Shown one piece after another: positions 1 to 24,891 of a DNA stretch of 64,000 bases. A program made the translations under genes and the position numbers. The first letter of the stretch is position 1, and every line of letters begins with the position of its first letter. The DNA is from an uncultured Gemmatimonadales bacterium. GTDB taxonomy: Bacteria > Gemmatimonadota > Gemmatimonadetes > Gemmatimonadales > GWC2-71-9. The notes beneath the pieces are model-generated. The model saw nothing but the letters and a program-made list of their open reading frames with translations. It was not told the origin of the DNA and ran no database searches. Location of the stretch: the NCBI GenBank assembly GCA_963788625.1, contig CAWBHB010000001.1:1031939-1095938 (forward strand), in the 5' to 3' direction.

Positions 1-2
1 TC

Positions 3-272
3 ATGAAATCCGCCGACCGGGCGCGACGCGGCAAGGTACTTGGCGTGCTGCTGACCGGGATGGGTGATGATGGAGCCGAAGGCATGAGCGTCATTCGGGC
101 CAACGGCGGCAGAACGATCGCCGAGAACGAAGCGAGCTGTACGGTCTACGGCATGCCTCGGGCGGCATTGGTCCGGGGCGGAGTGGATTGGATGCTGAGC
201 CTGCAGGAGATCGCGGCGGTGATGGCCGACGTGGGAGGTGGGGACGTGGGACGTCAGGACGTGGGGACGTGA
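3..272 (+). CDS. cheB: Protein-glutamate methylesterase CheB, C-terminal fragment (5' end outside window)
   Basis: Track ORF 3..272: GVLLTGMGDDGAEGM...IAENEASCTVYGMPRAA matches the CheB methylesterase core. The last ~15 codons (ADVGGGDVGRQDVGT) are encoded by repeat E1, and the stop TGA 270-272 lies inside the repeat. Confidence 0.75.
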   Translation: MKSADRARRGKVLGVLLTGMGDDGAEGMSVIRANGGRTIAENEASCTVYGMPRAALVRGGVDWMLSLQEIAAVMADVGGGDVGRQDVGT

Positions 273-378
273 GGACGTGAGGACGTGGGACGTGTGGACG
301 TGGGAGGTAGGAGGGGATGGGGGTACGCGGTACCCGGTACTGACTCAGTCCTCAGTCCTCAGTCCTTCCCCCTCGTGC
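228..378. repeat. Tandem-repeat element E1: about 9 x GGACGTGR, GGTAC-rich core, 3 x TCAGTCC
   Basis: Read directly: 228-320 gacgtgg/ggacgtg(a) units, 321-343 gggtacg cggtacc cggtact, 345-365 tcagtcc x3. It lies between the convergent cheB and mgtE stops. The arms are only imperfectly complementary (8-mer versus 7-mer). Confidence 0.8.
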
Positions 379-380
379 CT

Positions 381-1772
381 CTACAGCAGCGTCCCTTTCA
401 GCACCACCAGCGCCACGCTGAAGAAGATGATCAGCCCGGTCACGTCGACCAGGGTGGCTACGAACGGGGCCGACGCGCTCGCGGGGTCGAAGCCGATGCG
501 CCGAAGCACGAAGGGCAGCATTGATCCGGTCAGCGAGCCGAACAGCACCACGCCGACGAGTGAGAGCGCCACGGTGAGGCCCACTAGGAAGAAATGCACT
601 CCGTAGTCGTACAGTCCCAGGCCCTGCCAGGCTACAATGCGCACGAAGCCGATGATCCCCAGGATTGCCCCGAGCGTCAGGCCGGTCGGGAACTCCCGGG
701 CCGCCACCCGCCACCAGTCGCGCAATCCCACCTCGCGAAGCGCCATGGCCCGGATGATCAGTGAGGTGGCCTGCGAACCCGAGTTCCCGCCGGAGCTGAT
801 GATCAGCGGAAGGAAGATGGCGAGCACAACCGCTCGCTCGATCTCGTGCTCGAAGTACCCCATGGCAGTGGCCGTGAGCATTTCCCCCAGGAACAAGGCA
901 CAGAGCCAACCCGCCCGCTTGCGAATCATCTGAGGCAGGCCGATCTCCATGTACGGTTCGTCCAACGCCTCCATACCGCCGAACTTCTGCACGTCCTCAG
1001 TCTGTTCTTTCACCAAGGCATCGATCACGTCGTCAACCGTGACGATGCCGAGGACGTGGTTGGCCTCGTCTACCACGGGGATGGCCAGGAGATTGTACTT
1101 GGCGATGAGGCGGGCCACTTCTTCCCGATCGGTGAGAGGCCGGGTAGTGACCGGCTTCCGGGATTCGCCAATCTCTTTGACCGGCGTCGTGTCGGAGGCG
1201 GTCATCACCTCCCGCAGCGAGATGACCTGCTGCAGGCGCTGAGTCTTCTCGTCCAGCACGTAGATGGCGTAAACGGTTTCCTTGGCGCTGCCCACGTCGT
1301 GCACGAGCTGGCGGACTTGGGCCGCCGTCCAAGTCGAAGGCACGCCGACAAACTCCGTGGTCATCAGGCCACCCGCGCTCTGGGGCGGGTAGCTCAGGAG
1401 AAGCTTGAGCTGATCCCGGGTCGGGGCATCGAGGCAATAGCCCAGCCGGGCCCGGTCCGATCCCTTGATGCTGCGGAACAGGCGGACCTGCTGGTCCGCC
1501 GACATGGCCTGCACCAGCGGGGCCGCGATCTCGTCCGGCAGCCGCTCGACAATTTCGTCCCGCCCTTCCAACTCGGCTTGATCGAAGACTTCAACTGCGG
1601 TGTGGAAAGGAAGGGCTCCTACAACCTTCGAGGCGGCCTCCGGCGGCAGGTCGTTCAGCGCTTCAACGATGTCGGCGGGAAGGAGGTCGGCGCAGGCGGC
1701 GACGAAGTCTTCGGGATCGCCGGCGAGAAGGTAGAGGTACTCCGCGAGGGGAGCATCGGGGCGAGCGGGCAT
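381..1772 (-). CDS. mgtE: Magnesium transporter MgtE
   Basis: 463-aa ORF with an MgtE N-domain, CBS-pair region and C-terminal TM channel (GGNSGSQATSL..., VATLVDVTGLIIFF). Confidence 0.93.
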   Translation of the reverse strand: MPARPDAPLAEYLYLLAGDPEDFVAACADLLPADIVEALNDLPPEAASKVVGALPFHTAVEVFDQAELEGRDEIVERLPDEIAAPLVQAMSADQQVRLFRSIKGSDRARLGYCLDAPTRDQLKLLLSYPPQSAGGLMTTEFVGVPSTWTAAQVRQLVHDVGSAKETVYAIYVLDEKTQRLQQVISLREVMTASDTTPVKEIGESRKPVTTRPLTDREEVARLIAKYNLLAIPVVDEANHVLGIVTVDDVIDALVKEQTEDVQKFGGMEALDEPYMEIGLPQMIRKRAGWLCALFLGEMLTATAMGYFEHEIERAVVLAIFLPLIISSGGNSGSQATSLIIRAMALREVGLRDWWRVAAREFPTGLTLGAILGIIGFVRIVAWQGLGLYDYGVHFFLVGLTVALSLVGVVLFGSLTGSMLPFVLRRIGFDPASASAPFVATLVDVTGLIIFFSVALVVLKGTLL

Positions 1773-1823
1773 GGGTCCTGGACCGCGGTGGTTGTAGCTG
1801 GTCGAAGACTAAATGCGGAAGAA

Positions 1824-1924
1824 GGTGAGTGAGGAGTGAGGAGTGAGGAGTGAGGAGTCAGGAGTAACAGCGCGGTTATCACTCCTCACTCCTTACTTCT
1901 CACTCCTTACTCCTCACTCCTTAC
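1824..1924. repeat. Heptad-repeat hairpin E2: GAGGAGT x4 (+2 variants) / loop / ACTCCTY x6
   Basis: Read directly: 1831-1858 is four perfect GAGGAGT units, flanked by ggtgagt and caggagt. The loop is about 1869-1878. 1881-1922 reads actcctc actcctt acttctc actcctt actcctc actcctt. It lies between the cutA stop and the mgtE start. Confidence 0.9.
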
Positions 1925-2245
1925 GTGGTTTCCCACCTCACTCTCGATCCACGCCGCGTAGCTCCCGGCGGCGAATACGATCGGGGTCGCGATGATCTCC
2001 GGTACCTCGTAGGGATGGAGCGACCGAATTCTGGTCTCGAGGCCGGGGTACGCGGCGGTGCTGGTCTTGAGCAGGCAGTACCACTCGGCGGCTTCCTCTA
2101 TCTGCCCCTGCCAGCGGTACACGCTCGTAACGGGTCCGAAGATCTGGGCGCAGGCCGCGAGCCGCTCAGCGACCACCGTTTCCGCGATGCGACGCGCCAG
2201 CTCCTCCGAGGGGACAGTAGTGGTGACCTGAAGTAGCGCCGTCAG
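1907..2245 (-). CDS. cutA: Divalent-cation tolerance protein CutA (probable CTG start)
   Basis: Track ORF 1907..2176 (RLAACAQIFGPVTSVYRWQGQIEEAAEWYCLLKT...PYEVPEII) is CutA. The in-frame upstream codons LLQVTTTVPSEELARRIAET complete the fold but contain no ATG/GTG/TTG. The only candidate is a CTG (2245-2243) overlapping the upstream TGA as CTGA. The stop TAA 1907-1909 lies in E2. Confidence 0.75.
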   Translation of the reverse strand: MTALLQVTTTVPSEELARRIAETVVAERLAACAQIFGPVTSVYRWQGQIEEAAEWYCLLKTSTAAYPGLETRIRSLHPYEVPEIIATPIVFAAGSYAAWIESEVGNHVRSEE

Positions 2246-2625
2246 GATGGGACCTTAGTTTCGTCCCCGGTCTTGCCGTCGTCGATCGGGACGATCGCAG
2301 TACGCCAGCCGCTCTTGAACGTTACCGTAAGGCGCTGTCCCAGCGGGTCCGGCGTGATATCGACGATATCTTCGGAAAACTTGTTCCGGGCATAAGTGGC
2401 GGCGATCTCTGCCTGTGCGTCAGGGCCGGAGTTGTAGGGTCTCGCGAATTCCCGGCCGATCGCGACCGCGATGGCCTGCTCGCGACCATACGAGGCAAAC
2501 TGATCCGCGGGGACCAGTCCGGCCTGACTGGATACATGACGCGCCAGCTGATAGTCGCGACAGGCGAGGCTTGCAATGAGGCTCAGGAGAATTGGGATGG
2601 CGCGACGCATCGATAGACTCGGCAA
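2242..2625 (-). CDS. Hypothetical secreted protein or lipoprotein
   Basis: 127-aa ORF with an N-terminal signal-like MRRAIPILLSLIASLAC. No recognisable family. Confidence 0.5.
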   Translation of the reverse strand: MPSLSMRRAIPILLSLIASLACRDYQLARHVSSQAGLVPADQFASYGREQAIAVAIGREFARPYNSGPDAQAEIAATYARNKFSEDIVDITPDPLGQRLTVTFKSGWRTAIVPIDDGKTGDETKVPS

Positions 2626-2674
2626 AGAGTTAGGGGAAACACGCCGGCCACGAAGGTACTAGATTTCCGCCTCT

Positions 2675-3484
2675 ATGCGCAACCTGATCGGCTGGTGCCT
2701 GGCGGTCGCCTGGGTGCCCGCTTCGCTGGCCGCTCAAGTGCCGAGGGAGACTCCACGTTTTCAGTCGTGGGTTGCTCCCATTTCGGGGTCCCCCGCGATT
2801 GCCCGATCCAGTAGTGGGAGCTCCGCAAGCGAGCCCCACGCGGTGCAATGGTACGAGGCAGCGGCGGTGGCCGGCGTTGTAGTGGCAAGCGCATTGCTGG
2901 ACGAGACGGTTCAGGACTACACCCAGAGCCACCGGACCGAAACGAAAGATGATATCGCCTTTGTCTTTCGTCACATGGGGCAGCCCGAGGTCTATGCCAC
3001 CGTCGGCCTCGGCACCATCCTGGCCGGCCTCCTCGCGTCGGACGATGATATCACGCGGGCGGGTGGCCGCATCACCGGCTCCCTGGTCACCGCCGGCCTT
3101 TCGAACAGCATCATCAAGTATGTGGTCGGTCGAACGCGCCCGAACCATAGCACTACTCCGGAGCCTAATGAATTCGAGCCTTTCTCCGGCAACGTTTCGT
3201 TCCCCTCCGGACATACCGCAATGGCGTTCGCGCTCGCGACATCGGTCAGCCATGAAGTGCACTTCCTGCCGGCGCAGATCGGCCTCTTCAGTGCGGCGAC
3301 TCTCACGGGATGGTCCCGCATCAACGACAATAAGCACTGGCTGAGCGACGTAGTGGGCGGAGCCGCGGTCGGGATCACCAGTGCAATGATCATGGACGGG
3401 AAATGGACCATTTTCGGACTGGGCCAGCCCCATTTCCTGGCCACACCGAGCAGCGTCTCCGCTTCAATGTCCATCAAGTTCTGA
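2675..3484 (+). CDS. PAP2-family phosphatase
   Basis: 269-aa ORF with a signal peptide and the PAP2 motifs KYVVGRTRP, SFPSGHTA and SRINDNKHWLSDVVGG. Confidence 0.85.
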   Translation: MRNLIGWCLAVAWVPASLAAQVPRETPRFQSWVAPISGSPAIARSSSGSSASEPHAVQWYEAAAVAGVVVASALLDETVQDYTQSHRTETKDDIAFVFRHMGQPEVYATVGLGTILAGLLASDDDITRAGGRITGSLVTAGLSNSIIKYVVGRTRPNHSTTPEPNEFEPFSGNVSFPSGHTAMAFALATSVSHEVHFLPAQIGLFSAATLTGWSRINDNKHWLSDVVGGAAVGITSAMIMDGKWTIFGLGQPHFLATPSSVSASMSIKF

Positions 3485-3500
3485 GGACGGGCCCTGGAAA

Positions 3501-3536
3501 ACACGAAGCCCTCCGCTCTGGCGGAGGGCTTCGTGT
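3501..3536. terminator. Bidirectional hairpin terminator (16-bp perfect stem)
   Basis: acacgaagccctccgc tctg gcggagggcttcgtgt, between the convergent PAP2 and saccharopine dehydrogenase genes. Confidence 0.7.
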
Positions 3537-3581
3537 CATGGGAGCCTTACTGGCCTCTTGCCGATAGCGGTTGGCCCCGGC

Positions 3582-4814
3582 CTACGCTGCCACCGGCTCT
3601 GCGAAATCCATTTCGACCGCGTCGATCTTCCCGGTTTCCTCATCCCGCACATGCCAAGGCATTCCCATCTCGCCCAGCCGGGCCAGGAATGGATCCGGAT
3701 CGAACTGCTCGGGGGCCATGACCCCGACCCCGCTCCAGCGGCCACTCGCCATCAACTCGGCCGCGATCACTGGAGGGACACCGGTCTGATAAGCAGTCGC
3801 CTGCACTCCCAACTCGCCGTAGACCTTCTCGTGGTCGGTCACATTGTAGATGTAGAAGCTGCGCTCTTCTCCATTGCGGATTCCGCGAGCCAGCGTGCCG
3901 ACGCAAGTCTTCCCCCGCATCCGTCCGGCTAGATCGCCGGGCTGAGGCAGGAGGGCGACGACGACATCGCGAGGTGAAACCGTGCTGTCTCCCACCCGAA
4001 CCTTGTCGGTTCGGGACAGACCCATCTGCTTGAGGACTCGCAGCGTCTGCCAGGTCACATCGTCCATGCAAAGCTTGAAGTCCGCCGCCGCCAGGCCGGG
4101 GAAGAACATCGGCAGCGTGCGCGCCTCTTCGTGGTCAACGTAGTAGGTGTTAAGAACGCCGAGCTCCGGGAAGTTGAATGGCTCGAAGCCGGAGAGCGGT
4201 TCCTCCAGGTGGTAGGTCCCATCGCGCCACGAGATGGCTCCACAGAGGCATTCGTCGATGAAGACCCAGGGGCTGAACGCGGCCAGGAACCCGTCGTGTC
4301 CCTGGCAAATGGAATTGTCGCCGTCCCGTACCCGCAGCTCGGTCACCGTATCGAGGAGGTGCTTGGCGGCGTACGCGGCGTAGACGTTACTGGTTCCCGG
4401 ATCGGCCCCCATCCCCAGGATCGCCAGACGACCCGCGACCCTGAATTCCTGGTCGAGGGCAAACTGGTCAGGGAGTTTCGGGGTGCCGTCCAGTGCGGCC
4501 CCGCCGCTCGCCATGTCGATGTAGTCGCAACCTCCATCGAGACACGCTCGCATCACGACCAGGTTGGTGGCCGGAAGGGCGGCGTTCAGGAGAATGGTCG
4601 TACCGGTTTCGCGAATGGCGCGGGCGAGTTCACTACGGTTCCCGGCGTCAAGCGTCATGGCGCTCACGCGCGGGCTCCCAATGCGGTCGGCGAGTAGCTG
4701 GGCTCGACCAGGGACAGCATCCGCGATGACCAGCCGGGTCACCATGGGATGCTGCGCGAATTTCAGGGCGGACACGGTCCCCACCGCGCCGGCACCCAAC
4801 ACCAGGACGTTCAC
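3582..4814 (-). CDS. Saccharopine dehydrogenase-family NAD(P)-binding protein
   Basis: 410-aa ORF with the Rossmann start MNVLVLGAGAVGTV and length and composition typical of the saccharopine dehydrogenase / carboxynorspermidine dehydrogenase family. Confidence 0.8.
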   Translation of the reverse strand: MNVLVLGAGAVGTVSALKFAQHPMVTRLVIADAVPGRAQLLADRIGSPRVSAMTLDAGNRSELARAIRETGTTILLNAALPATNLVVMRACLDGGCDYIDMASGGAALDGTPKLPDQFALDQEFRVAGRLAILGMGADPGTSNVYAAYAAKHLLDTVTELRVRDGDNSICQGHDGFLAAFSPWVFIDECLCGAISWRDGTYHLEEPLSGFEPFNFPELGVLNTYYVDHEEARTLPMFFPGLAAADFKLCMDDVTWQTLRVLKQMGLSRTDKVRVGDSTVSPRDVVVALLPQPGDLAGRMRGKTCVGTLARGIRNGEERSFYIYNVTDHEKVYGELGVQATAYQTGVPPVIAAELMASGRWSGVGVMAPEQFDPDPFLARLGEMGMPWHVRDEETGKIDAVEMDFAEPVAA

Positions 4815-5271
4815 AAACTCCTCTTTTCATTGTTGGTGCGGGACTCGGTCTGGCCCCTCCGTGACAGCCCGAGAAGCCTGTCAGGAAGCTGGGCCTCGCC
4901 CCCCCCGCTACTGGGGGCCCCACAGCTCAAGGAGAGAGTCAGCTGTGAGGAGTGGACCCTCCGCTCGGTCGGAGGATGCAAACACGCCCCCTGCTGGACA
5001 GGGGCCGCAACCCAGTCTAGCCCACCCCCCCCACCTCCTGTCCAGCCCCCTTGCGGAGCCCGATCTCGTGCGATTTTCGCTCTTGACGAACGGCATTTCC
5101 GGGATGCGCATGAGGCGAAAGGCGTTAGTTGCCAAGTGTTGCAACAAGGAACGACAACCCGGCTCGAGCAGCTCCTCCGAAGTAAGCAGCACTCGGGCGA
5201 CGTGAAGTCATCAACCGAATCCGCTTCGCCGATTCACCGGACGATGTAGCCAGGGGGTGGCGTAAGTCTGC

Positions 5272-5299
5272 TTGTGCAAAACTCTTAACGGGATATAAT
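5272..5299 (+). promoter_or_regulatory. Candidate sigma-70-type promoter for the HTH-TOBE/modABC operon
   Basis: TTGTGC (5272-5277), 16-nt spacer, perfect TATAAT (5294-5299), 20 nt before ATG 5319. It is an AT-rich island in GC-rich DNA. Confidence 0.35.
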
Positions 5300-5318
5300 A
5301 GCCAAGCGAAAGGACAAT

Positions 5319-5702
5319 ATGGATACATTGAGGGTGGAAGAGGTCGCCGCTCTGCTTCGGCTCAACCGCAAGCGAGTCCAGACCCTGGCTCGGGCCGGCA
5401 AGCTGCCCGCGAGTCGAGTGGGGCGGAAATGGCTTTTCTCCCGCGCCAAGATCGAGGCAATGCTGGGGACCGAGACCCAGACCGCCCCGGCCCCAGTTCA
5501 GGATCTCAGTGCTAGAAACCGGCTGCGGGGTCGGATCATCGGAATCCAGGTCGACGGTGTCATGGCCGAGGTCCGGCTCGCGATCGGCGAGCAGGAGTTG
5601 ATCTCGATCATTACTCGGAATTCGGTCGAACGGATGGGGCTCAAAGTCGGCGACGAGGTGTTCGCGGTCATCAAATCCACCGAAGTCATGATCGGAAAAT
5701 GA
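5319..5702 (+). CDS. HTH (excisionase/MerR-type) plus TOBE/Mop molybdate-binding domain regulator
   Basis: 127 aa. The N-terminus LRVEEVAALLRLNRKRVQTLARAGKLPASRVGRKWLF is an HTH. The C-terminus SARNRLRGRIIGIQVDGVMAEVRL...VIKSTEVMI is a TOBE domain. It is translationally coupled to modA. Confidence 0.8.
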   Translation: MDTLRVEEVAALLRLNRKRVQTLARAGKLPASRVGRKWLFSRAKIEAMLGTETQTAPAPVQDLSARNRLRGRIIGIQVDGVMAEVRLAIGEQELISIITRNSVERMGLKVGDEVFAVIKSTEVMIGK

Positions 5703-6517
5703 AACGCTGTCCGACCGGTCGCGTTGGCCTCCGCGTACTCGCGCTGCTTGCGGGGTCCGTCTCCACCGCCATTGCCCAGCAGCCGACGCTCACCGTCTTC
5801 GCCGCCGCGTCCCTCACGGAGCCGTTTTCTCGCCTCGGCAAGAGCTTCGAAGCCAGGCACCGCGGGACGACCGTCCGCTTCAACTTCGCGGGCTCGCAGC
5901 AACTGGTCCTTCAGATCCAACAGGGAGCCAAGGCCGATGTTCTTGCCTCGGCGGACGAGCGGTGGATGCAGACCGCAAGGGACAGCGGCCTCGTCGAAGG
6001 CGACCCGGTCCTCTTCGCCCGCAATGCCCTCGTGGTGATTGTGCCGAGAGCCAACCCGGCCGGAATCCGGCGGCTGCAGGATCTCGCGCGGTCAGGGGTG
6101 AAGGTGGTGATCGCCGCCGAAGCGGTCCCGGTGGGCCAGTACACCCGTCAGATGCTCGACAAGCTTTCTGCGCAGCCAGGGTTCGGCACGGAATACCGCC
6201 AGCAGGTTCTGGCCAACGTCGCGAGCTACGAGGAGAACGTGAAAGGAGTCGTCGCCAAGGTGCAGCTCGGGGAGGCCGACGCGGGTGTAGTCTACCGTTC
6301 CGATGCCAGCGGATCCGGCGCTTCGCAGTTGATCACGCTCGACATTCCAGAAGCCGCCAATGTCATCGCGTCCTATCCTATCGCCGTGGTCCACGAGGCG
6401 CCCTCTCGTGAGCTGGCCGAGGCCTTCCTCGCGCTGGTGGAATCGGCCGAAGGGCAGGAGGCGATGAGGAGCGCCGGTTTCATCCCTGTGCCGCCCGTGT
6501 CCCAGACTGCTCCATGA
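5699..6517 (+). CDS. modA: Molybdate ABC transporter substrate-binding protein
   Basis: 272 aa, signal peptide, LTVFAAASLTEPF... typical of ModA. There is a 4-nt overlap with the neighbouring genes. Confidence 0.9.
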   Translation: MKRCPTGRVGLRVLALLAGSVSTAIAQQPTLTVFAAASLTEPFSRLGKSFEARHRGTTVRFNFAGSQQLVLQIQQGAKADVLASADERWMQTARDSGLVEGDPVLFARNALVVIVPRANPAGIRRLQDLARSGVKVVIAAEAVPVGQYTRQMLDKLSAQPGFGTEYRQQVLANVASYEENVKGVVAKVQLGEADAGVVYRSDASGSGASQLITLDIPEAANVIASYPIAVVHEAPSRELAEAFLALVESAEGQEAMRSAGFIPVPPVSQTAP

Positions 6518-7305
6518 GGCTGCTTCGTACGGTTGTTATCCGCGCCTTGTTAGGGCTCGCGGTTGGTGGGCTCGCCTTTCTTCTCGTACTGCCTGTCGTC
6601 GCCCTGCTGGTTCGTACCCCTCCGGGAGAACTCGTTACCCGGCTGGGCCGGCCCGAGATCCGCCAGGCGCTGCTGCTTAGCCTCGAGACGAGTCTGCTCG
6701 CTACCGGGCTCGTCGTCCTGCTCGGTCTCCCAACCGCGTACCTGCTCGCCAGCCGACAATTCCCGGGAAAGCGGATCGCCGAAGTATTGGTCGAGCTCCC
6801 CATGGTCATTCCGCCCACCGTGGCGGGGCTCATCCTGTTGCTGACCTTCGGAAGAACCGGACTCCTGGGGAAGTCGCTCACGGTGCTGGGGGTGTCGTTG
6901 CCGTTTACCACCGCGGCGGTGGTGGTTGCCCAGGCTTTCATGGCCGCTCCGTTCTTCCTCGTCCCCGTGCGCGCCGGTTTCACCACCGTTGAGCCCCGTT
7001 ATCGCGAAGTCGCCTCGACCCTCGGCGCCAGCGAGCTGTACTCGTTCTTTCGAGTGATGCTCCCGCTGAGCCTGCCTTCGGTTGTGGCGGGAACCGCGAT
7101 GGCCTGCGCCCGCGCTCTCGGGGAATTCGGCGCAACCATCACCTTCGCCGGCAACCTCCCCGGCGTGACTCAGACCATGCCCCTCGCCGTTTACGTCGAG
7201 ATGCAGCATGACCTGGGCGCGGCGATCACCCTCTCGGTCCTCCTGATCCTTCTGTCTTTCGGACTGTTGCTCGCGCTGCGGTACGGCCAGTCCCGGGTTC
7301 ATTGA
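6514..7305 (+). CDS. modB: Molybdate ABC transporter permease
   Basis: 263 aa, multi-TM, with the EAA-loop-like ARALGEFGATITFAGN. Confidence 0.9.
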   Translation: MRLLRTVVIRALLGLAVGGLAFLLVLPVVALLVRTPPGELVTRLGRPEIRQALLLSLETSLLATGLVVLLGLPTAYLLASRQFPGKRIAEVLVELPMVIPPTVAGLILLLTFGRTGLLGKSLTVLGVSLPFTTAAVVVAQAFMAAPFFLVPVRAGFTTVEPRYREVASTLGASELYSFFRVMLPLSLPSVVAGTAMACARALGEFGATITFAGNLPGVTQTMPLAVYVEMQHDLGAAITLSVLLILLSFGLLLALRYGQSRVH

Positions 7306-8390
7306 AGGCACCCGTGCTCCAGGCTCTCCTCGCCACCCGATACGGCGAATTCTCCCTCGATCTCGATCTGGAGATTCCACCAGGGGAGACCTTGGTACTG
7401 GTCGGGGAAAGCGGATCGGGAAAGTCGACCGTCCTCCGACTACTGGCCGGGCTGGCCCGCCCGACCTCGGGTCGGATCATCCTGGAGGGGACGGTCTGGT
7501 TCGATGCCGCGAAGCGGATCGATCTCCCGCCGCAAGCCAGAGAGATCGGCTGGCTGCCACAGGACTATGCGCTGCTGCCGCATCTGAACGTGTTCGAAAA
7601 CGTGGCCTTCGGCCTCAGGGCGCGAGGAGTGCCACGATCGGAACTCATCGATCGTTGCCACAAGGCTCTGGAACGGTTTGGGGTGGGCGACCTCGCCGCT
7701 CGACGTCTGACCGGTCTCTCAGGGGGCCAGCAGCAACGCGTCGCGCTGGCGCGCGCCATGGTTCTCAAGCCGCGGCTCCTGCTCCTCGACGAGCCGCTCG
7801 CGGCGCTCGACGTCCAGACCCGGGCCCGGGTGCGCGGCGACCTGCGTACCATGCTGGCCTCGCTTCCGTGCACCACGATCTTCGTCACCCACAATCCCCT
7901 CGAAGCGGTGGTGTTCGGCCAGCGTATCGCGGTGCTGGAGGCTGGCCGAATCGTGCAGTCGGGCACTCCGGACCGACTGCTACGGCAGCCGCGTTCGCCT
8001 TATGTCGCTGCGTTCACCGGCGTGAACCTGTTTCAAGGCCGGGCTAGCGTGCCCCAGCCGGGGGGGCTCAATCGAGTCGAAACCGACCAGGGTCCGGTGC
8101 TGGTGCCGGGAACGGAGGGTGGCGACCGAAAGTTCCTCGCAGTGAGTCCCCGCGAGATCACGCTCTATGGAGCGGCACCAACCGCCGGCAGCGCCCAGAA
8201 CGTCTTCCGTGGGCCGGTGGTGGAACTGATTCCGGAGCCCCCCTTCGGTGAGCGAGTTCGAGTCGTCCTGGGCACCCGGCCTCCCCTGGTAGCCGAGGTG
8301 ACCCAGGCCGCAGTGGATCGATTAGGCCTGGCGGTGGGAGTCCAGGTCTACGCTAGCTTCAAAGCGACGGCTGTGAACACCTACACGTAA
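7302..8390 (+). CDS. modC: Molybdate ABC transporter ATP-binding protein with C-terminal TOBE domain
   Basis: 362 aa with Walker A GESGSGKST, signature LSGGQQQRV and Walker B LLLLDEP. Confidence 0.9.
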   Translation: MKAPVLQALLATRYGEFSLDLDLEIPPGETLVLVGESGSGKSTVLRLLAGLARPTSGRIILEGTVWFDAAKRIDLPPQAREIGWLPQDYALLPHLNVFENVAFGLRARGVPRSELIDRCHKALERFGVGDLAARRLTGLSGGQQQRVALARAMVLKPRLLLLDEPLAALDVQTRARVRGDLRTMLASLPCTTIFVTHNPLEAVVFGQRIAVLEAGRIVQSGTPDRLLRQPRSPYVAAFTGVNLFQGRASVPQPGGLNRVETDQGPVLVPGTEGGDRKFLAVSPREITLYGAAPTAGSAQNVFRGPVVELIPEPPFGERVRVVLGTRPPLVAEVTQAAVDRLGLAVGVQVYASFKATAVNTYT

Positions 8391-8495
8391 GTCCAGGGGC
8401 TCGATTGGCCCAGCTTCAGGCCCGCTTCTAGCGCTCTTGCCGCGCCCGGGGGTGGGGGCTAATCTCTCCGCCTTCCAGTCTCAGGTTTCGTATCC

Positions 8496-10124
8496 ATGAG
8501 CGGTACTTTCAACATCTCCCGACCAGTCAACGAGCCGATATTGGGCTACGCCCCCGGTTCGGCGGAGCGCGCCCAACTGAAGGCCGTTCTGGCCAAGATG
8601 GCCGGGGAGACCATCGACATCCCGATCGTGATCGGGGGACAGGAAGTTCGCACTGGCCGCACCATCGATTGTGTGAGCCCGCACGCCCACAAGCGGGTGC
8701 TGGCCAAGGTGCATCAGGCCGGGGCGGCCGAGATCACCAGTGCCATTTGTGCCGCCCAGAAAGCGTGGCGGGAGTGGTCGAACTGGAGGTTCGAGGATCG
8801 GGCGGCGGTATTCCTCAAGGCGGCGGATCTGCTGGCGGGGCCGTGGCGCCCGATTGTGAACGCTGCCACGATGTTGGGTCAGAGCAAGACGGCCTATCAG
8901 GCGGAAATCGATTCCGCCTGTGAGCTGATTGATTTCTGGCGCTTCAACGTGCACTTCGCGCAACAGGTTTACGGGGAGCAACCGCATTCGGCGCCATTGA
9001 CCTGGAACCGGATGGATCATCGGCCGCTGGAAGGGTTCGTCTACGCCATTACGCCCTTCAACTTCACCGCGATCGGCGGCAACCTTCCCACCTCACCCGC
9101 CATCATGGGGAACGTGGTGCTCTGGAAGCCCGCCGCATCCGCGTCGCTCAGCAACTATTACCTGTTGAAGCTGCTGGAAGAGGCGGGACTGCCCCCGGGG
9201 GTCATCAACCTGGTTCCCGGCCCGGCGCGGGAAGTGAGCGACCTGCTCCTCGCGGATCGCGCTTTCGCGGGAATACACTTCACCGGTTCGACGGAGGTCT
9301 TTCAGTCGCTGTGGAAGACCATCGCCGGACACCTGCCGCAATACGCGGCCTATCCCAGAATCGTGGGTGAGACCGGCGGCAAAGACTTCGTCATTGCCCA
9401 TCCCAGCGCCGACGTGGATGCGCTCTGCGTCGCCCTCGTCCGCGGCGCCTACGAGTATCAGGGCCAGAAGTGCAGTGCCGCCTCTCGCGCCTACGTGCCT
9501 TCCAATCTCTGGCCCCAGGTGAAGGAACGCCTGCTCGCGCTCATCGCGGATATCCGAATGGGCGACGTAGCCGACTTCCGGAACTTCATGGGTGCCGTGA
9601 TCGACCAGAAGGCGTTCGACCGGATCCGGGAGTACATCGAGAAGGCCAGGAAGGATTCGGGCGTGAAGATCCTGGCGGGAGGCGGTTGCAACGGGGAGAC
9701 GGGGTACTTCATCGAGCCGACGCTGCTGCAGGCCGAGGATCCCAAGTACCGCACGATGTGCGAGGAAATCTTCGGCCCGGTCCTCAGTCTCCACGTGTAT
9801 CCGGAGAACCGCTGGACCGAGACCTTGACCCTGGTGGACACGACCAGCCCGTACAGCCTGACTGGTGCAGTCTTCGCGCAGGATCGACGCGCGCTGGTCG
9901 AGGCCGACCTCGCGTTGCGCCATGCGGCGGGGAACTACTACATCAACGACAAGCCGACGGGCGCCGTCGTCGGCCAGCAGCCCTTCGGTGGCGCCCGCGC
10001 CAGCGGGACCAACGACAAGGCGGGCTCGATTCTCAACCTGGTGCGCTGGGTTTCCCCCCGCAGCATCAAGGAGAACTTCAATCCGCCGAAGGACTACAGG
10101 TATCCCTTTATGGGGGCGGAGTAG
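8496..10124 (+). CDS. pruA: L-glutamate gamma-semialdehyde (1-pyrroline-5-carboxylate) dehydrogenase
   Basis: 542-aa aldehyde dehydrogenase with VGETGGKDF and YEYQGQKCSAASR. The length and N-terminus are typical of standalone PruA. Confidence 0.88.
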   Translation: MSGTFNISRPVNEPILGYAPGSAERAQLKAVLAKMAGETIDIPIVIGGQEVRTGRTIDCVSPHAHKRVLAKVHQAGAAEITSAICAAQKAWREWSNWRFEDRAAVFLKAADLLAGPWRPIVNAATMLGQSKTAYQAEIDSACELIDFWRFNVHFAQQVYGEQPHSAPLTWNRMDHRPLEGFVYAITPFNFTAIGGNLPTSPAIMGNVVLWKPAASASLSNYYLLKLLEEAGLPPGVINLVPGPAREVSDLLLADRAFAGIHFTGSTEVFQSLWKTIAGHLPQYAAYPRIVGETGGKDFVIAHPSADVDALCVALVRGAYEYQGQKCSAASRAYVPSNLWPQVKERLLALIADIRMGDVADFRNFMGAVIDQKAFDRIREYIEKARKDSGVKILAGGGCNGETGYFIEPTLLQAEDPKYRTMCEEIFGPVLSLHVYPENRWTETLTLVDTTSPYSLTGAVFAQDRRALVEADLALRHAAGNYYINDKPTGAVVGQQPFGGARASGTNDKAGSILNLVRWVSPRSIKENFNPPKDYRYPFMGAE

Positions 10125-10266
10125 AAGAAGAAAAGCGTGAGAAGTAAGTAGTGAGAAGGAACAGCGGGACGCAGGAGAATCAGCCCCGTCGTGCTTTTCC
10201 TTCTCACTTCTCACTTCTTACTTCTCACGCTGTTCTTCCTTCTCACTTCTTACTTCTCACGCTGTT
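10125..10266. repeat. Heptad-repeat hairpin E3: GTGAGAA/GTAAGTA arm and a duplicated TTCTCAC/TTCTTAC arm
   Basis: The left arm is 10125-10165. The right side carries two direct copies of the complementary module (about 10191-10233 and 10234-10266) that differ by exactly one ttctcac unit. It lies between the convergent pruA and cysK stops. Confidence 0.85.
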
Positions 10267-11242
10267 AGGCCACCGCCTCCTCCACGTCGGCGAAGTCCGG
10301 GTCGGCCAGCTCGGTGTAGACCGGATTGGACAGATATCGCTCGCCGAAGTCGCAGACGATGGAGACGATGAGCTTTCCGGCGTTCTCCCGGCGGGATGCG
10401 ACCTTGAGTGCCGCCCAGGTGATCGATCCGGATGAGATCCCGGCGAAGATCGCCTCATCTCTCGCCAGACGTCGCGCCGTGGCTATGGCGTCCTCGTTGG
10501 TCACTCTAATCACCTCGTTGTAGATCGTGGTGTCGAGGTTTCCCGGCACGAAGCCGGCGCCGATGCCCTGCTGTTTGTGGGGCGACGGGCTGCCTCCCGA
10601 CAAGACCGGGCTTTCGTTGGGTTCGACCGCCACGATGTGAATGTCAGGCTTCTTTTCCCGAAGAAATCTTCCCGCGCCTGTAATGGTGCCTCCGGTTCCC
10701 ACCCCGGCAACGAAGATGTCCACCTTCCCCTCGGTGTCGCTCCAGATCTCGGGCCCCGTGGTCCGGTAATGGATCGCGGGGTTGGCCGGATTGTCGAACT
10801 GGCGCGGCATCCAGGCCTTGTTGCCCAGGCGTCCTGCGATTTCCTCGGCGCGCGCCATGGCACCCTTCATCCCCTTGGCCCCTTCGGTCAGTACGATCTT
10901 GCACCCAAGGGCCCTCAGTATGTGCCGCCGTTCCAGTGTCATGGTATCCGGCATCGTGAAGATGCAGCGGTAGCCGAACGCGGTTGCCGCATAGGCCAGC
11001 CCGATCCCCGTGTTGCCGCTGGTGGGTTCCACGATGAGCATACCGGGCTTGAGGCGGCCGCTGGCGATCGCGTCGGTGATCATCGCATTGCCGATCCGGT
11101 CCTTCACCGAATCGAACGGGTTATAGCCCTCGTGTTTCACCGCGATGCGTGCGGGGAGTCCGGCGCTGATGCGGCTCAGCTCGATCAGCGGGGTGTTGCC
11201 GACAGTCTCGGTTACATCGCGGTAAATGCGTCCGTGGGGCAT
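10265..11242 (-). CDS. cysK: Cysteine synthase A (O-acetylserine sulfhydrylase)
   Basis: 325 aa with the PLP-lysine region NPFDSVKDRIG, plus EPTSGNTGIGLA and GVGTGGTITG. Confidence 0.9.
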   Translation of the reverse strand: MPHGRIYRDVTETVGNTPLIELSRISAGLPARIAVKHEGYNPFDSVKDRIGNAMITDAIASGRLKPGMLIVEPTSGNTGIGLAYAATAFGYRCIFTMPDTMTLERRHILRALGCKIVLTEGAKGMKGAMARAEEIAGRLGNKAWMPRQFDNPANPAIHYRTTGPEIWSDTEGKVDIFVAGVGTGGTITGAGRFLREKKPDIHIVAVEPNESPVLSGGSPSPHKQQGIGAGFVPGNLDTTIYNEVIRVTNEDAIATARRLARDEAIFAGISSGSITWAALKVASRRENAGKLIVSIVCDFGERYLSNPVYTELADPDFADVEEAVA

Positions 11243-11535
11243 AGGGTCACCTGTGCTGAGAAAGGGCCAAGGAGGCTCACACCGCCCCCGGGTCCGGGGT
11301 CCAAATCCGCCGTTGTAGTCCCTGGTCCTACAAGCTCATCCGCCAAGGTCCGACTCTCCCTTCAGCAGGGTCCCGATCGAGCCGGTCTGATCCGGGTCAT
11401 ACCTTATTTGCGCCTTACCAAGTAGCGGAGCGGAGTCGGGAGGCGAACCGCATCCATCGGATGGGAGTAGCTCCGGAACGGGCGGACATCCAGCGATGCC
11501 CGCTCGCTTTGGAGGACCTGGGACACGAGGGCAAG

Positions 11536-12186
11536 ATGATCGCCGCTAGCCACTACCGTAAGACCCGCCTGATCCTCGGGCTGATCACTCCGCTGATGCT
11601 GGGCACGGTCACCGGCCGGGCCGGGGCGCAGCTGCCGATCGCCTCGGGCAAGGTCGTGTCTGGTACCCTTTCCTTTGACGGCCGCGCCACTGTGGGCGAC
11701 TTCGTCGGAACCACCACGACTCTGAGTGGAGAGATGACCGGTGGTCCCGAGCTTTCTTCAGTCCGGGGATGGGTCGAGGCCCCGGTCTCGACCCTCCGGA
11801 CCGGCAAGGACAAGCGGGATCAGGACATGAGAAAGTCCATGGAGTCCGACAAGTATCCCACGATCCGTTATGAGCTGACCGGCGTGGCCACCGATGCCTG
11901 GACCGGAGACAACGCCGACGTCACGCTTCACGGCCGCTTCCTGATTCACGGTGTCGAGCGGGAAGTAGAGTTCCCCGGATTAGTGATCGTGGATCAGGGC
12001 GGCGTCCAGGTGCGGGCGACGGTGCCGCTCAACCTGAAAGACTATCGGATCGGCGGGCTCAGCAAGATGCTCGGCATGCTCAAGATGCATGAGGACATCG
12101 TCGTTCACGTCGATGTAACCTTCGCCTCGGAGGCACCGTCGGATCAGGACACGCCGCTGGCCGGGTCTGCGACAATGGGCTATTAG
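11536..12186 (+). CDS. YceI-family periplasmic protein
   Basis: The start is taken at ATG 11536 (GAGGG 5-9 nt upstream). A signal peptide is present, and the body (...RTGKDKRDQDMRKSMESDKYPTIRYEL...FLIHGVEREV) is YceI-like. Confidence 0.75.
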   Translation: MIAASHYRKTRLILGLITPLMLGTVTGRAGAQLPIASGKVVSGTLSFDGRATVGDFVGTTTTLSGEMTGGPELSSVRGWVEAPVSTLRTGKDKRDQDMRKSMESDKYPTIRYELTGVATDAWTGDNADVTLHGRFLIHGVEREVEFPGLVIVDQGGVQVRATVPLNLKDYRIGGLSKMLGMLKMHEDIVVHVDVTFASEAPSDQDTPLAGSATMGY

Positions 12187-12248
12187 TCGGCCCTTATCGT
12201 TGACCTGTGGGTGCAGCGTCCGTACCATGATTCGTCTTTCACGGAACG

Positions 12249-14210
12249 ATGGCGATGGTTCTCCTGATCGTACTCCTGACACTCGCCCTGGTCGCAACAG
12301 GGGTCACGCTGCTGCGCTACCGGGAGACCGCGGGCCAGCTGCGGGTCCAGCAGGCCTACCTCGAGCAACTCTTCGAAACCTTTCCCCACGCGCTCACGCT
12401 TCGGGATCTGAACGGCCGCCTGATCCGCGCCAACGCGGAATTCAGCCGGTTGTTCCGCTATTCGGTCCAGGAAGCCGTCGGGGTGGACATTGACCGTCTG
12501 ATCGGCGCCTCGGGGGCCGAACCCAACACCGGCGTCGAGCGGCTCCTCAGCTCGGAGAGCCGGATGTGGCGCCAGATGCGCCGCCGCCGGCGCGACGGAT
12601 CGCTGGTCGACGTGTCCCATACCGGCTCCCCGCTCACCGTAGACGGGAAGGCCGTGGCGTTCTACGAGGTGTACCACGACCTCACTCAACAGCTGCGTGC
12701 GGAAGCGACCATCACCGAACAGCAGAAGCTGCTCGAGGCCTTCTTCACCCAGTCGCTTGACGGATTCTTTTTCATGATGCTGGACCGGCCGATCCGGTGG
12801 AACGATCAGGCCGACAAGGAGAAACTTCTCGACTACATCTTCACCCATCAGCGGATCACCAGGGTCAACGCGGCGATGGCGGCGGAGTACGGGTGGCCTC
12901 AGAGCCGGATCCTGGGACTCACGCCCGCCGATTTCTATTCCCACGACTTGGCCCACGGTCGTTCGGCGTGGCGCGCGCTGTTCGACGCCGGCCGGCTGCA
13001 CACGGTCACCCACGAGCGCCGGGCGGATGGCACGCCCATGCTGATCGAGGGTGACTACGTCTGCCTCCATGATGCCGATGGGCGGATCACCGGACACTTC
13101 GGGATTCAGCGGAACATCAGCGAGCGGGCCCGACAGGAACAGGCGCTCCGCGAGTCGGAGGAGAAGTTTGCCAAGGCGTTCCGTTCGTCGCCCTTCCCGA
13201 TGAGCATCGCCACTCTCGAGGAGGGTCGCTACATCGAGGTGAATGAGGCCTTCCTTCGGGACGTGGGCCTGCCTCGGGAGGACGTGATCGGGCGGCGGCC
13301 TCATGACCTGGGACTCTGGCGTGATCCGGGGGCACGGGATGAGCTGGTCCAGCGGCTTCAGCGGGACGGGATGGTGCGCCGGTACGAATTCGAGGCGCGG
13401 ACTCGGCTCCGGGAACGGCAGATCAACCAGGTCTGGGCCGAGAAGATCAACCTCGGCGGGCAAGACTGCCTGCTGGACATTGTATGGGACGTGACCGACT
13501 GGAAGGCCAACGAGGAGGCGATGCGCCGCTCCCGCCAGGAGCTGCGAGACCTGGCCGCCCGGTTGCAGACCGTGCGTGAAGAGGAACGCACCCGGATCGC
13601 CCGGGAGCTGCACGACGAGCTGGGCCAGGCGCTGACCGGGCTCAAGATGGATCTCTCGTGGGTACGCAGCCGCTTGCCACGCCCCCAGGGCGATCTGTCT
13701 GACCGGTTGGCGAACGCCATCACCCGGCTGGATGGCACGGTCGATTCGGTCCGTCGAATCGCGACCGAATTGCGCCCCGGGGTGCTGGACCTCCTCGGTC
13801 TGGTCGCCGCGATCGAGTGGCAGTCGCAGGAATTCTTCCGCCGGACCGGTATCGAAACCGACCTCGATCTCCAGTCCGACGATAGTCCGGTGGATGACGC
13901 ACGCGCGACGACGGTGTTCCGGATTCTGCAGGAGGCGCTCACCAACGTGGCGCGCCACGCCCAGGCCTCCCGGGTTCGGATTGGGGTCCTGCAGACCCGG
14001 GACGAGTTGCGGCTCGAGGTGGCGGACAACGGACGCGGGATTACTCCCGTAGAGCTGGCTGAGAGGACCTCCCTCGGCCTGATCGGAATCCGGGAACGGG
14101 CGATTGCCTGCGGCGGCGTCCTCGAGATCGAAGGACGGCCAGGGGAGGGAACCAGAGTCGAGGTGAGGATTCCCTCCCGAGTACTCGAAAAGCAGGAGGC
14201 GGTTGCGTGA
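12249..14210 (+). CDS. PAS-domain sensor histidine kinase (HisKA_3/NarL-type)
   Basis: 653 aa with one N-terminal TM, repeated PAS-like segments, the H-box ERTRIARELHDELGQ and an HATPase region (DNGRGI...GLIGIRERA). Confidence 0.85.
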   Translation: MAMVLLIVLLTLALVATGVTLLRYRETAGQLRVQQAYLEQLFETFPHALTLRDLNGRLIRANAEFSRLFRYSVQEAVGVDIDRLIGASGAEPNTGVERLLSSESRMWRQMRRRRRDGSLVDVSHTGSPLTVDGKAVAFYEVYHDLTQQLRAEATITEQQKLLEAFFTQSLDGFFFMMLDRPIRWNDQADKEKLLDYIFTHQRITRVNAAMAAEYGWPQSRILGLTPADFYSHDLAHGRSAWRALFDAGRLHTVTHERRADGTPMLIEGDYVCLHDADGRITGHFGIQRNISERARQEQALRESEEKFAKAFRSSPFPMSIATLEEGRYIEVNEAFLRDVGLPREDVIGRRPHDLGLWRDPGARDELVQRLQRDGMVRRYEFEARTRLRERQINQVWAEKINLGGQDCLLDIVWDVTDWKANEEAMRRSRQELRDLAARLQTVREEERTRIARELHDELGQALTGLKMDLSWVRSRLPRPQGDLSDRLANAITRLDGTVDSVRRIATELRPGVLDLLGLVAAIEWQSQEFFRRTGIETDLDLQSDDSPVDDARATTVFRILQEALTNVARHAQASRVRIGVLQTRDELRLEVADNGRGITPVELAERTSLGLIGIRERAIACGGVLEIEGRPGEGTRVEVRIPSRVLEKQEAVA

Positions 14211-14839
14211 TCCGACTGCTCATTGCCGATGATCACCCCATCGTGCGCGCGGGCCTTCGCCGTATTGCCGCGGACCATCCTGGAATCACCGTGGTGGGAG
14301 AGGCGGCGTCAGCCGCCGAGGTGCTGGAGCGGGTGATAGAAACACCCAGCGATGTGGTCTTGCTCGATGTTTCCATGCCGGGACCCAGCTTCATCGAGGT
14401 TCTGCAGCAGGTGCGGAAGGAGCATCCTTCGGTCAAGGTCCTGGTGCTGAGCGTGCATCCCGAGGACCAATGGGCGGTCCGTGCGCTTCGCGCCGGAGCG
14501 GCCGGATACCTCACCAAGGACCACTCGCCGGAGCAGCTGATCGAGGCCATCCGCAAGGTCTACCGGGGAGGGAAGTACGTGAGCGCGGCACTCGCCGAGC
14601 GGCTCGCAACCGGGCTTGAGGCCGGTACCAGCACGGTGTTGCACGAGAGGCTTTCGGATCGGGAGTACGAGGTGCTTCGTGGGCTGGGCACCGGCCTGAG
14701 CGTGAAGGTCCTGGCGGAGCGGTTGGGTTTGAGCGCCAAGACTGTGAGTACCTACCGGACCCGCATCCTGGAAAAGATGCAGATGGTTACCAACGCGGAC
14801 CTGATTCGTTATGTGAACGACAACGGGTTGCGAAACTGA
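14207..14839 (+). CDS. LuxR/NarL-family response regulator
   Basis: 210 aa with receiver LLIADDHPIVR...LLDVSMPG and a C-terminal LuxR HTH (LSDREYEVLRGLGTGLSVKVLAERLGLSAKTVSTYR). It overlaps the kinase gene by 4 nt. Confidence 0.9.
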   Translation: MIRLLIADDHPIVRAGLRRIAADHPGITVVGEAASAAEVLERVIETPSDVVLLDVSMPGPSFIEVLQQVRKEHPSVKVLVLSVHPEDQWAVRALRAGAAGYLTKDHSPEQLIEAIRKVYRGGKYVSAALAERLATGLEAGTSTVLHERLSDREYEVLRGLGTGLSVKVLAERLGLSAKTVSTYRTRILEKMQMVTNADLIRYVNDNGLRN

Positions 14840-14865
14840 GATGGCCGGGGAATCCCGGCCATCTC
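14838..14865. terminator. Bidirectional hairpin terminator (12-bp stem, GAAT loop)
   Basis: gagatggccggg gaat cccggccatctc. It starts inside the TGA of the response regulator gene and ends 8 nt before the stop of the convergent amidohydrolase gene. Confidence 0.7.
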
Positions 14866-14872
14866 GGCATCT

Positions 14873-16180: not shown

Positions 16181-16189
16181 ATTGTCCTC

Positions 16190-16975: not shown

Positions 16976-17034
16976 GCCATAAGTCGTAAGCCAATAAGCC
17001 CCAAAAGTTTGGCTTACGGCTTATGGCTTACGGC
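16965..17034. repeat. Heptad-repeat hairpin E4: GCCATGA GCCATAA GTCGTAA GCCAATAA / TGGCTTA CGGCTTA TGGCTTA CGGC
   Basis: Read directly. The centre is ccaaaagtttgg. The stop codons of both convergent genes (16973-16975 and pqqE 17028-17030) lie inside the arms. Confidence 0.85.
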
Positions 17035-18140: not shown

Positions 18141-18415
18141 GACGACACCGCCGCTCGATCTACGACGAGGTTGCGATCCTCAAGCCCGGCGAGATACTCG
18201 ATCACATCACTCAATACGTCGCTGTTATACCGCTCGCCCAGCTCACGCGCGATCTCTCCGGCGGTCCGCTCCCCGTTGCACAGCTCCAGGATCGCCTTCC
18301 CGGTGTCATTGATGAACATGGCCCCCTCCGGATAGAGCAGAACCGAACGCTGGCGTACCCGGTCGAAATCGATCCTGGCGAGGCGCCAGAGCTGAGGACG
18401 GGAATCGGGAGTCAT
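18137..18415 (-). CDS. pqqD: PQQ biosynthesis peptide chaperone PqqD
   Basis: LLYPEGAMFINDTGKAILELCNGERTAGEIARELGERY is PqqD. The start is taken at ATG 18415 (92 aa). The track start at 18457 would add 14 codons encoded by repeat E5. Confidence 0.8.
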   Translation of the reverse strand: MTPDSRPQLWRLARIDFDRVRQRSVLLYPEGAMFINDTGKAILELCNGERTAGEIARELGERYNSDVLSDVIEYLAGLEDRNLVVDRAAVSS

Positions 18416-18419
18416 CTGC

Positions 18420-24887: not shown

Positions 24888-24891
24888 GGAA

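Follow-up and report, generated by a model that had tools for sequence, protein, structure and literature searches.

A stretch of 64,000 nt from the genome of a soil bacterium of the order Gemmatimonadales (here the window, with element coordinates in whole-window numbering) carries nine elements, E1 to E9, in which units of 7 nt, or sometimes 8 nt, are repeated head to tail at the 3′ ends of genes, and in most of which two such arrays face each other in inverted orientation. We hold, with slightly more confidence than doubt, that these are lineage-specific simple-sequence arrays with a 7-nt (sometimes 8-nt) step that in some members of the order grow by slippage downstream of genes, and that as paired forms they serve as hairpins that terminate transcription or stabilize 3′ ends.

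The nine elements of the original prediction were all recovered where it had placed them, by direct reading of the sequence, by Tandem Repeats Finder (TRF) and by an inverted-repeat scan. Arrays were counted by fixed-lag self-match (lag-match score of at least 10) in the 43 intergenic stretches of the window, 12.2 kb in total. This gave 8 arrays of period 7 and 3 of period 8, against a mean of 0.03-0.04 (maximum 1) in 200 dinucleotide-preserving shuffles, and none of period 5, 6, 9, 10 or 11. A chance origin of the window arrays is excluded. The wider set, made up of the window and 157 non-redundant loci (a metagenome scan contributed 80 further loci to the related set), spans 2.07 Mb, which a rough gene caller of our own divided into 210 kb of intergenic and 1.86 Mb of coding DNA. 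Its intergenic part holds 79 period-7 and 24 period-8 arrays, with at most 6 arrays for every other primitive period; arrays counted at periods 14 and 16 reflect multiples of the 7- and 8-nt steps. The much larger coding part holds 10 period-7 arrays. That only these two periods are enriched is a strong indication that the arrays arose by a shared process advancing in steps of 7 or 8 nt. The median array has about 3.7 units (about 26 nt).

An excess of this kind has precedent. According to later summaries (PMC4679880, PMC4692102) of a survey by Mrazek, Guo and Shah (2007), heptanucleotides are over-represented among long simple sequence repeats (LSSRs), and the cause proposed there was polymerase slippage with a footprint of roughly 7 nt (PMC4679880). 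As far as the summaries describe them, the heptanucleotide LSSRs resemble the arrays studied here in being tandem 7-nt units beyond chance length, mostly non-coding, with many different units and a sporadic phylogenetic distribution. LSSRs are head-to-tail copies of 1-11-nt units beyond chance, as found here (8 + 3 arrays against about 0.03 in the window, and 79 + 24 in the wider set), and the non-triplet units are likewise concentrated outside coding DNA, as judged by rough gene calls. The same summaries describe no inverted pairing, 3′-end placement or gene-relative polarity, all of which are found in the Gemmatimonadales arrays.

The arrays follow the ends of genes. At least one is present in 32 of 110 convergent spacers (29%), 60 of 559 tandem spacers (11%) and 5 of 240 divergent spacers (2%), and per base the frequency in convergent spacers is about 30-fold that in divergent ones. 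Most begin 0-10 nt from a stop codon and some include it, and hairpin elements lie 0-40 nt from the stop. In the window, open reading frames (ORFs) together with NCBIfam and Pfam matches place E1, E3, E4, E7 and E9 between convergent genes and E2, E5, E6 and E8 between tandem genes, the same five and four as predicted. The description of the elements as intergenic needs amending: all lie at gene 3′ ends, but E2, E4 and E1 run into the final codons of flanking genes and are not purely intergenic.

Pairing is also far above expectation. An inverted partner lies within 250 nt of 59 of 139 arrays (about 40%), against 4 of 139 in a control with unrelated flanks; the others stand alone. The elements come in three builds: the arrays may form the stem directly (E2, E9), they may be placed around a plain core hairpin (E7 and the related loci L018, L071, L086 and L095), or a solo array may occur (E8). 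By folding energy, expressed as a z-score against shuffles, seven of the nine elements (E2-E7 and E9) are convincing hairpins with z from −5.3 to −10.4. Eight had been described as having inverted arms, and the eighth, E1, folds no better than shuffles (z −1.2). For E8 the description was right, as the array has no inverted partner and no structure (z +2.6).

Plain hairpins occupy the same positions. On a subsample of spacers, 67% of the array-free convergent spacers are strongly structured (z<−3), against 4% of the divergent ones; convergent spacers with paired arrays are structured in 81% of cases. Spacers with solo arrays are mostly unstructured, with 33% of the convergent and 14% of the tandem ones structured. 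These observations support the conclusion that heptad elements share the niche of the plain 3′ hairpins, which presumably serve this genome as terminators or 3′ stabilizers. The four ordinary hairpins cited in the original prediction (3501-3536, 14838-14865, 31038-31073 and 58010-58051) are real. The first, a 16-bp hairpin (ACACGAAGCCCTCCGC/GCGGAGGGCTTCGTGT, 3502-3535) between convergent genes, is nearly unchanged in at least seven related loci, unlike the fast-changing heptad elements. Some plain hairpins are followed by T runs, as at 31037-31068 (TTTTC) and 58010-58040 (T7).

E2 (1824-1924, minus strand) illustrates the stem-forming build. It lies between cutA (1907-2236, minus) and mgtE (381-1772, minus), and its arms, 1827-1865 with GAGGAGT units and 1881-1919 with ACTCCTY units, are 39 nt long and 90% complementary around a 15-nt loop. 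The left arm is nearly perfect, and the right arm alternates three variant units. The element folds at −72.1 kcal/mol (z −10.4) on the plus strand and at −66.8 kcal/mol (z −9.95) on the minus strand, and the cutA stop codon (1907-1909) is within the right arm, 18 nt inside the element. E9 (46259-46309), a shorter hairpin of the same build (arms 46264-46284 and 46289-46309, ATTGAAG/CTTCAAT units, z −6.0), separates a convergent cytochrome c assembly gene and aquaporin (MIP) gene.

E3 (10125-10266, GTGAGAA/GTAAGTA units, z −7.7) occupies the entire spacer between a convergent L-glutamate gamma-semialdehyde dehydrogenase gene (stop 10124) and cysK (stop 10265); its arms span 10127-10158 and 10207-10238, and an additional 3′ repeat block reaches 10266. 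E4 (16965-17034) has arms at 16969-16994 and 17009-17034 with GCCATRA/GTCGTAA units, folds at −41.2 kcal/mol (z −8.9), and covers the stop codons of both convergent genes, an ORF at 16079-16975 and pqqE (17028-18140). E5 (18420-18534, minus; arms 18422-18463 and 18492-18533, ATRGTCG units, −54 kcal/mol, z −5.3) is located within the pqq operon that holds pqqE and pqqD (18137-18457), between pqqD and a pqqB-pqqC ORF (stop 18530). That ORF (18530-20203, minus) encodes 557 residues, of which 6-220 match PqqB and 331-556 match PqqC, and is an apparent PqqB-PqqC fusion. E6 (24892-25053, minus) has arms at 24894-24933 (GTGAACG/GGGAACG) and 25007-25048 (CGTTCAC) with a 76-nt spacer (z −7.1), and its right arm overlaps the stop of a major facilitator superfamily gene (25036-25902).

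In E7 (40220-40352, z −9.65), the arms at 40220-40257 (AGCCGTC, 5.4 copies) and 40327-40352 enclose a plain hairpin as core (40277-40299, GGCCCTCAG-TTAAT-CTGAGGGCC). The genes on either side of E7, kup and a DUF411 gene, are convergent; the left arm begins in the kup stop codon, and no other window element has a 5′ arm richer in C than in G. E1 is a pair of related but unequal inverted arrays, with the 8-mer GGACGTGA opposite the 7-mer GGACTGA. Its left array (228-304, plus), identified by TRF and in the sequence, has about 10 units of GGACGTGR/GGGACGTG with period 8/7 and is G-rich in the sense of a CheB-like ORF (3-272, Pfam CheB_methylest). The last 15 or so codons and the TGA stop of this ORF are inside the array, and the predicted protein ends in DVGGGDVGRQDVGT. 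The right array (344-366, minus) has 3.3 copies of CTCAGTC, or GACTGAG in the mgtE sense, and lies 15 nt past the mgtE stop.

E8 (40833-40983, minus) is a direct array with 13 perfect copies of GCCATTCC (40833-40936) and a further 2.4 copies at 40962-40980. On the coding strand of the upstream gene, which stops at 40987, it is G-rich (GGAATGGC). This upstream gene, an acyl-CoA synthetase (40987-42457, minus), appears split, with the AMP-binding domain in the frame of an ORF at 40805-42457 and the C-terminal domain in another frame (40987-41421); the wrong frame extends to 40805 because the G-rich E8 array contains no stops. A pyridoxal phosphate-dependent decarboxylase (23445-24964, minus) also appears split, into 24254-24964 (profile positions 1-161) and 23445-24257 (192-374). 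Both genes are either pseudogenes or carry assembly indel errors.

Nearly every locus has a unit of its own. We found 102 distinct canonical units among the 139 arrays, and the nine window elements represent eight clearly different units. The claim of locus-specific units holds with this qualification, since a unit of E2 (GTGAGGA) and one of E3 (GTGAGAA) are a single base apart. Pairs of similar units across loci number 501 against 229 expected, a comparison confounded by orthologous loci and by the counting of both arms; single-linkage clustering chained all units together. We find it scarcely credible that the elements belong to a mobile or dispersed family of repeats (REP/REPIN, miniature inverted-repeat transposable elements) or are an artefact of assembly, even if the convergent-gene placement and palindromic shape recall enterobacterial REP/BIME elements. 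The original prediction had already set aside a dispersed copy family, and the diversity of units agrees: loci share no sequence beyond one-base relatives. Orthologous arrays are conserved in position in independent assemblies from several projects, which excludes an artefact, and four metagenome assemblies of one strain (L081-L084) have identical arrays. No array element matches an Rfam family at the gathering score; the matches of E2 and E3 to eukaryotic miRNA-precursor models are far below threshold and reflect generic long hairpins. In the Rfam scan the sole passing match is a cyclic di-GMP-I riboswitch aptamer (RF01051, 43189-43278, plus, 50.5 bits against a gathering score of 35) upstream of an ORF at 43369-44067. 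A CRISPR array was rejected as well, given that the units are 7-8 nt long and directly abut, whereas CRISPR repeats of 23-50 nt alternate with unique spacers of similar length.

Some arrays lie at the ends of the analyzed stretches: L057 5776-5869 (contig end 5895), L052 4171-4225 (end 4225), L010 10012-10095 (end 10109) and L076 21373-21410, with three of these four loci reaching a contig end. Several short-read contigs stop within an array. Such arrays probably interrupt assembly from short reads, and counts in metagenome-assembled genomes (MAGs) are therefore likely to be too low.

The units are seeded by the sequence already in place. Coding tails and stop codons are found inside the arrays of E1, E2, E7 and L052, and in E7 and L052 one base, the one that creates the stop, sets the first unit apart from the others (TAGCCGT vs CAGCCGT, and CGGCTAGA vs CGGCTGGA). 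Two ideas about what such units might do for translation were rejected. The provision of stops in all three frames was set aside as the main purpose of 7-nt units: sense stops occur in 26 of 66 stop-proximal arrays against 14 of 66 on the other strand, an excess that is modest and not general, and many long arrays, such as E8 and L060, have none. Shine-Dalgarno mimicry is disfavored by the depletion of AGG, GAGG and AGGA in stop-proximal units, judged by a weak control of composition shuffles only. In the sense orientation AGG occurs 8 times against 21.5 expected and GAGG 2 against 8.2, in a control that ignores genome-wide dinucleotide bias; by the same control ACGG is enriched (14 vs 4).

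Relatives show how the elements change. A search with MgtE found syntenic loci in Gemmatimonadales MAGs only, the closest being MAG MFD02242.bin.2.15 (96% amino acid and about 86% nucleotide identity); the collection contains no gene identical to the MgtE sequence of the window. Among relatives at 80-94% DNA identity, orthologous spacers retain arrays of related units, and copy number, variants and loop differ. In the spacer upstream of mgtE a GTGAG core is retained down to about 70-75% MgtE identity, while the unit drifts through GTGAGGA, GTGAGAA, GGTGAGC and GGTGAAG, the opposite arm carrying the complement in every case. In other species a plain hairpin takes this position. In L002, E1 takes the form of a complex of 270 nt in which one unit occurs 20 times. 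Between relatives at about 94% identity, elements have disappeared entirely or have lost one arm. Within the one strain represented by L081-L084, E2 is identical and hypervariability is not visible at that scale. Recent expansion is indicated by perfect runs of 13-16 copies, as in E8 and L060. Two species have cutA between two hairpins of the same unit (L005 1234-1343 and 1647-1750; L015 9384-9537 and 9832-9938), the units being GGTGAGC and GGTGAAG, which suggests that the element was duplicated locally, or that cutA was gained or lost between its two copies.

The original prediction offered slippage and expansion mirrored on both arms as one origin. The shared 7/8-nt step agrees with the first half of this idea, but the mirroring does not hold up. 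In a unit-order permutation over 13 testable pairs, the order of variant units showed no excess of mirroring between arms, with low power because the detected arrays are nearly perfect; for E2 the observed value was 27 against a null mean of 29. Inverted duplication and arm-to-arm copying, as sources of a mirrored order, were rejected on this basis. Given the unmirrored order and the loss of one arm alone, each arm seems to homogenize separately.

The course of events that we favor is as follows. Slipped-strand duplication with a 7/8-nt step would enlarge the DNA just past stop codons, starting from seeds that are local, either the last codons and the stop or the stem of a pre-existing hairpin after the gene. 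Because the seeds are local, each locus would have its own unit and orthologous loci would have related ones. Where both sides of a 3′ hairpin expand, the product would be a very long hairpin with periodic arms, and its role would most likely be that of the plain 3′ hairpins, namely to stop or attenuate transcription in either direction and to protect the 3′ end of the upstream mRNA. The arms would then homogenize by their own slippage, shifting copy number and arm balance quickly, with some elements lost. Slippage on local seeds would account for the period specificity, the local units, the 3′-end bias and the nested core hairpins, and also for conserved positions with a changing unit and for rapid gain and loss. 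What the data show is the 7/8 periodicity, the position at 3′ ends, the hairpins, the local seeds, the turnover and the polarity described below; slippage as the mechanism and a terminator or stabilizer role are inferred.

Several observations weigh against this model. About half of all arrays have neither partner nor structure, so the inverted hairpin is not their defining feature. A U-rich tract after the 3′ arm is mostly missing in the window elements, E9 alone having a T-rich stretch; in positions 1-20000 of the window, hairpins followed by a T run number 6 against 10.7 expected from shuffles, and a consensus terminator scan of the same 20 kb does not list E1-E5. With stems of −40 to −100 kcal/mol, the hairpins go far beyond what termination needs. 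Among elements in tandem contexts, folding favors the sense strand 8 times and the antisense strand 9 times; given this equality there is no sign of RNA-level selection through G-U pairs, and G-U tolerance on the transcribed strand was rejected as an explanation. E1 is wholly absent in L081, L096 and L140, where the flanking genes abut or overlap, and in L081 E2 has lost its 5′ arm and kept the 3′ array, so the elements are dispensable. Finally, slippage alone explains neither the G-rich-outward polarity described below nor the sharp restriction to steps of 7 and 8.

The absence of a U-tract has a parallel. In G+C-rich bacteria, intrinsic terminators without a U-tract are known as I-shaped. 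Like the elements here, I-shaped terminators and the described hairpin clusters (PMC8355165) are stable G+C-rich hairpins soon after the stop and often common to convergent genes. Seven of the nine window elements have the stable hairpin near the stop that an intrinsic terminator requires and, apart from the T-rich stretch after E9, lack the U-tract; they differ from I-shaped terminators in stems of 20-45 bp that are internally periodic and often far stronger than any characterized terminator.

The main rival is a pure mutational by-product, in which a slippage tendency of the lineage yields 7/8-nt arrays wherever they are harmless, mostly past stops. The arrays would be inert, and hairpins would arise only because the stems of existing terminators are among the seeds. 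We consider this possible, if on the unlikely side. It fits the patchiness among related loci (0 to 11 arrays per about 20 kb), the losses of elements and arms between close relatives, the unstructured solo arrays, the unmirrored variant order, the equal folding of sense and antisense, and the diversity of unit sequences. It fails chiefly on the polarity and on the arm units at the mgtE locus, which remain complementary over deep divergence, and the roughly 30-fold per-base depletion in divergent spacers is also above what simple promoter avoidance would give.

The polarity is as follows. Arrays are G-rich on the strand running out of the nearest gene. Among stop-adjacent arrays, 60 have more G than C and 21 more C than G, or 19 against 3 when collapsed by unit (p about 9e-4). 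Start-adjacent arrays lean the same way in raw counts (31 vs 12), a bias that is not significant once related units are collapsed (11 vs 5). Because arrays are G-rich outward, on either strand the 5′ arm of a paired element is G-rich and its 3′ arm C-rich. Background composition was rejected as the source of the polarity, with a skew near 0 in array-free spacers, +0.04 in the tails of coding sequences, and a split of 17 to 16 among plain hairpins. Neutral slippage does not predict such a bias.

The polarity would fit orientation-dependent insulators. Under this explanation, the C-rich, G-poor strand leading into a gene is a Rho-loading tract for polymerases that arrive by convergent read-through, antisense transcription or read-through from upstream, and paired arrays are hairpin terminators as well. 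The stop-adjacent and, more weakly, the start-adjacent arrays have the appropriate orientation; E1 offers each convergent transcript a G-rich tract and then a C-rich, G-poor tract of 55-80 nt; solo arrays lack structure, a necessary property of Rho loading sites; and classical U-tract terminators are scarce. We nevertheless think it quite improbable. The median array is shorter than a typical Rho loading site, the C-rich strand still has about 20% G, the C-rich arm is base-paired in paired elements, and the start-adjacent bias loses its significance on collapsing. Moreover, similar heptamer arrays occur in cyanobacteria, which are generally reported to lack Rho.

A related and more speculative explanation, improbable too by a shade less, is that the arrays are a self-building, direction-sensitive boundary. 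Transcription-linked 7/8-nt expansion would occur only where the outgoing transcript is G-rich, triggered for example by R-loop-prone G-rich RNA once the ribosomes are gone at the stop, and the product would protect the gene against polymerases entering from outside, solo arrays by providing a C-rich tract for Rho loading and paired ones by forming a bidirectional hairpin terminator.

A G-rich strand downstream of genes also brings to mind elements that act through a specific structure or protein, either G-quadruplex formers or iterated binding sites for a regulator. The Xanthomonas GGGAATC and Nostoc GGGGAYT heptamer arrays, which are intergenic and of unknown function (Rehm et al. 2015, PMC4692102), have such a G-rich strand on the coding side, and in some of the arrays studied here (E1, the left arm of E6, L016) runs of at least three G recur every 7-8 nt. 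As a general basis the G-quadruplex was rejected, because the canonical four-tract motif is found in only 26 of 157 arrays (17%) and 30 units lack even GG; a single sequence-specific binder is ruled out by the number of different units. We regard explanations of this type as very improbable.

Most of these features have been described before in other bacteria, and the statement of the original prediction that it recognized no described repeat class was too strong. Heptanucleotide simple sequence repeats, the short tandemly repeated repetitive (STRR) sequences of cyanobacteria, the Xanthomonas GGGAATC arrays (PMC4692102) and the Geobacter repeats (PMC2700814) are all known. Xanthomonas genomes have 70-75 convergent pairs of opposite-strand arrays each (PMC4692102), and inverted pairs are found here too. 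In Xanthomonas and Nostoc, as here, the coding strand is G-rich downstream of genes, divergent spacers are under-represented, and related species share loci with differing lengths (PMC4692102). Those arrays use one shared G-quadruplex-forming unit genome-wide, whereas about 100 units are used here; pairing, polarity and rarity in divergent spacers are therefore held in common, and the shared G-rich unit with at least four G3 tracts is not.

In Geobacter metallireducens, 3-5 tandem units of 7-9 nt form mostly opposite-strand pairs at variable distance (Aklujkar et al. 2009, PMC2700814); these belong to multicopy families of 16-49 copies with one consensus each, read as regulator sites, and no multicopy families are found here. 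The STRR of filamentous cyanobacteria, which like our arrays are tandem heptanucleotides in intergenic DNA (and are mentioned in PMC4692102), have few units dispersed widely, whereas the Gemmatimonadales units are locus-specific, are not reused in that way and belong to another phylum. Reportedly, the STRR heptamers were described by Mazel and colleagues in 1990 as tandem heptanucleotides with few units at many loci.

Enterobacterial REP/BIME elements form hairpins at 3′ ends and between convergent genes, are dispensable and vary between strains, and they stabilize upstream mRNA and attenuate transcription within operons. REP is one conserved palindrome present in hundreds of copies and spread by a RAYT transposase. 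By analogy, REP/BIME may be the closest functional counterpart of the heptad elements (compare E5 inside the pqq operon), with the difference that the window elements have no conserved palindrome, share no sequence save the one-base likeness of E2 and E3, and are internally periodic. The literature library searched yielded no report of such repeats in Gemmatimonadota. The arrays are thus of a known kind, bacterial heptamer repeats, and what differs here is the locus-specific units, steps of 7 and 8 together, nested core hairpins, a quantified polarity and a different phylum.

For the intergenic excess of heptamers in bacteria, on record since 1990 and 2007, no cause or function is generally accepted. 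The lineage studied here is an unusually clean case, in which only periods 7 and 8 are enriched, stop codons and hairpin stems are recognizable as the source of the local units, the association with gene 3′ ends is strong, and the polarity is absent from plain hairpins. It turns a vague idea of slippage into testable alternatives, such as transcription-coupled expansion, growth of terminators and Rho loading. The same features would explain why contigs assembled from short reads of such genomes are prone to end where genes end. If the arrays are a self-building boundary, the genome would grow its own terminators and insulators from local sequence, rather than inheriting or importing them. If, as we favor, the paired forms terminate transcription, then in these Gemmatimonadales terminators would be built and rebuilt in situ on short evolutionary timescales.

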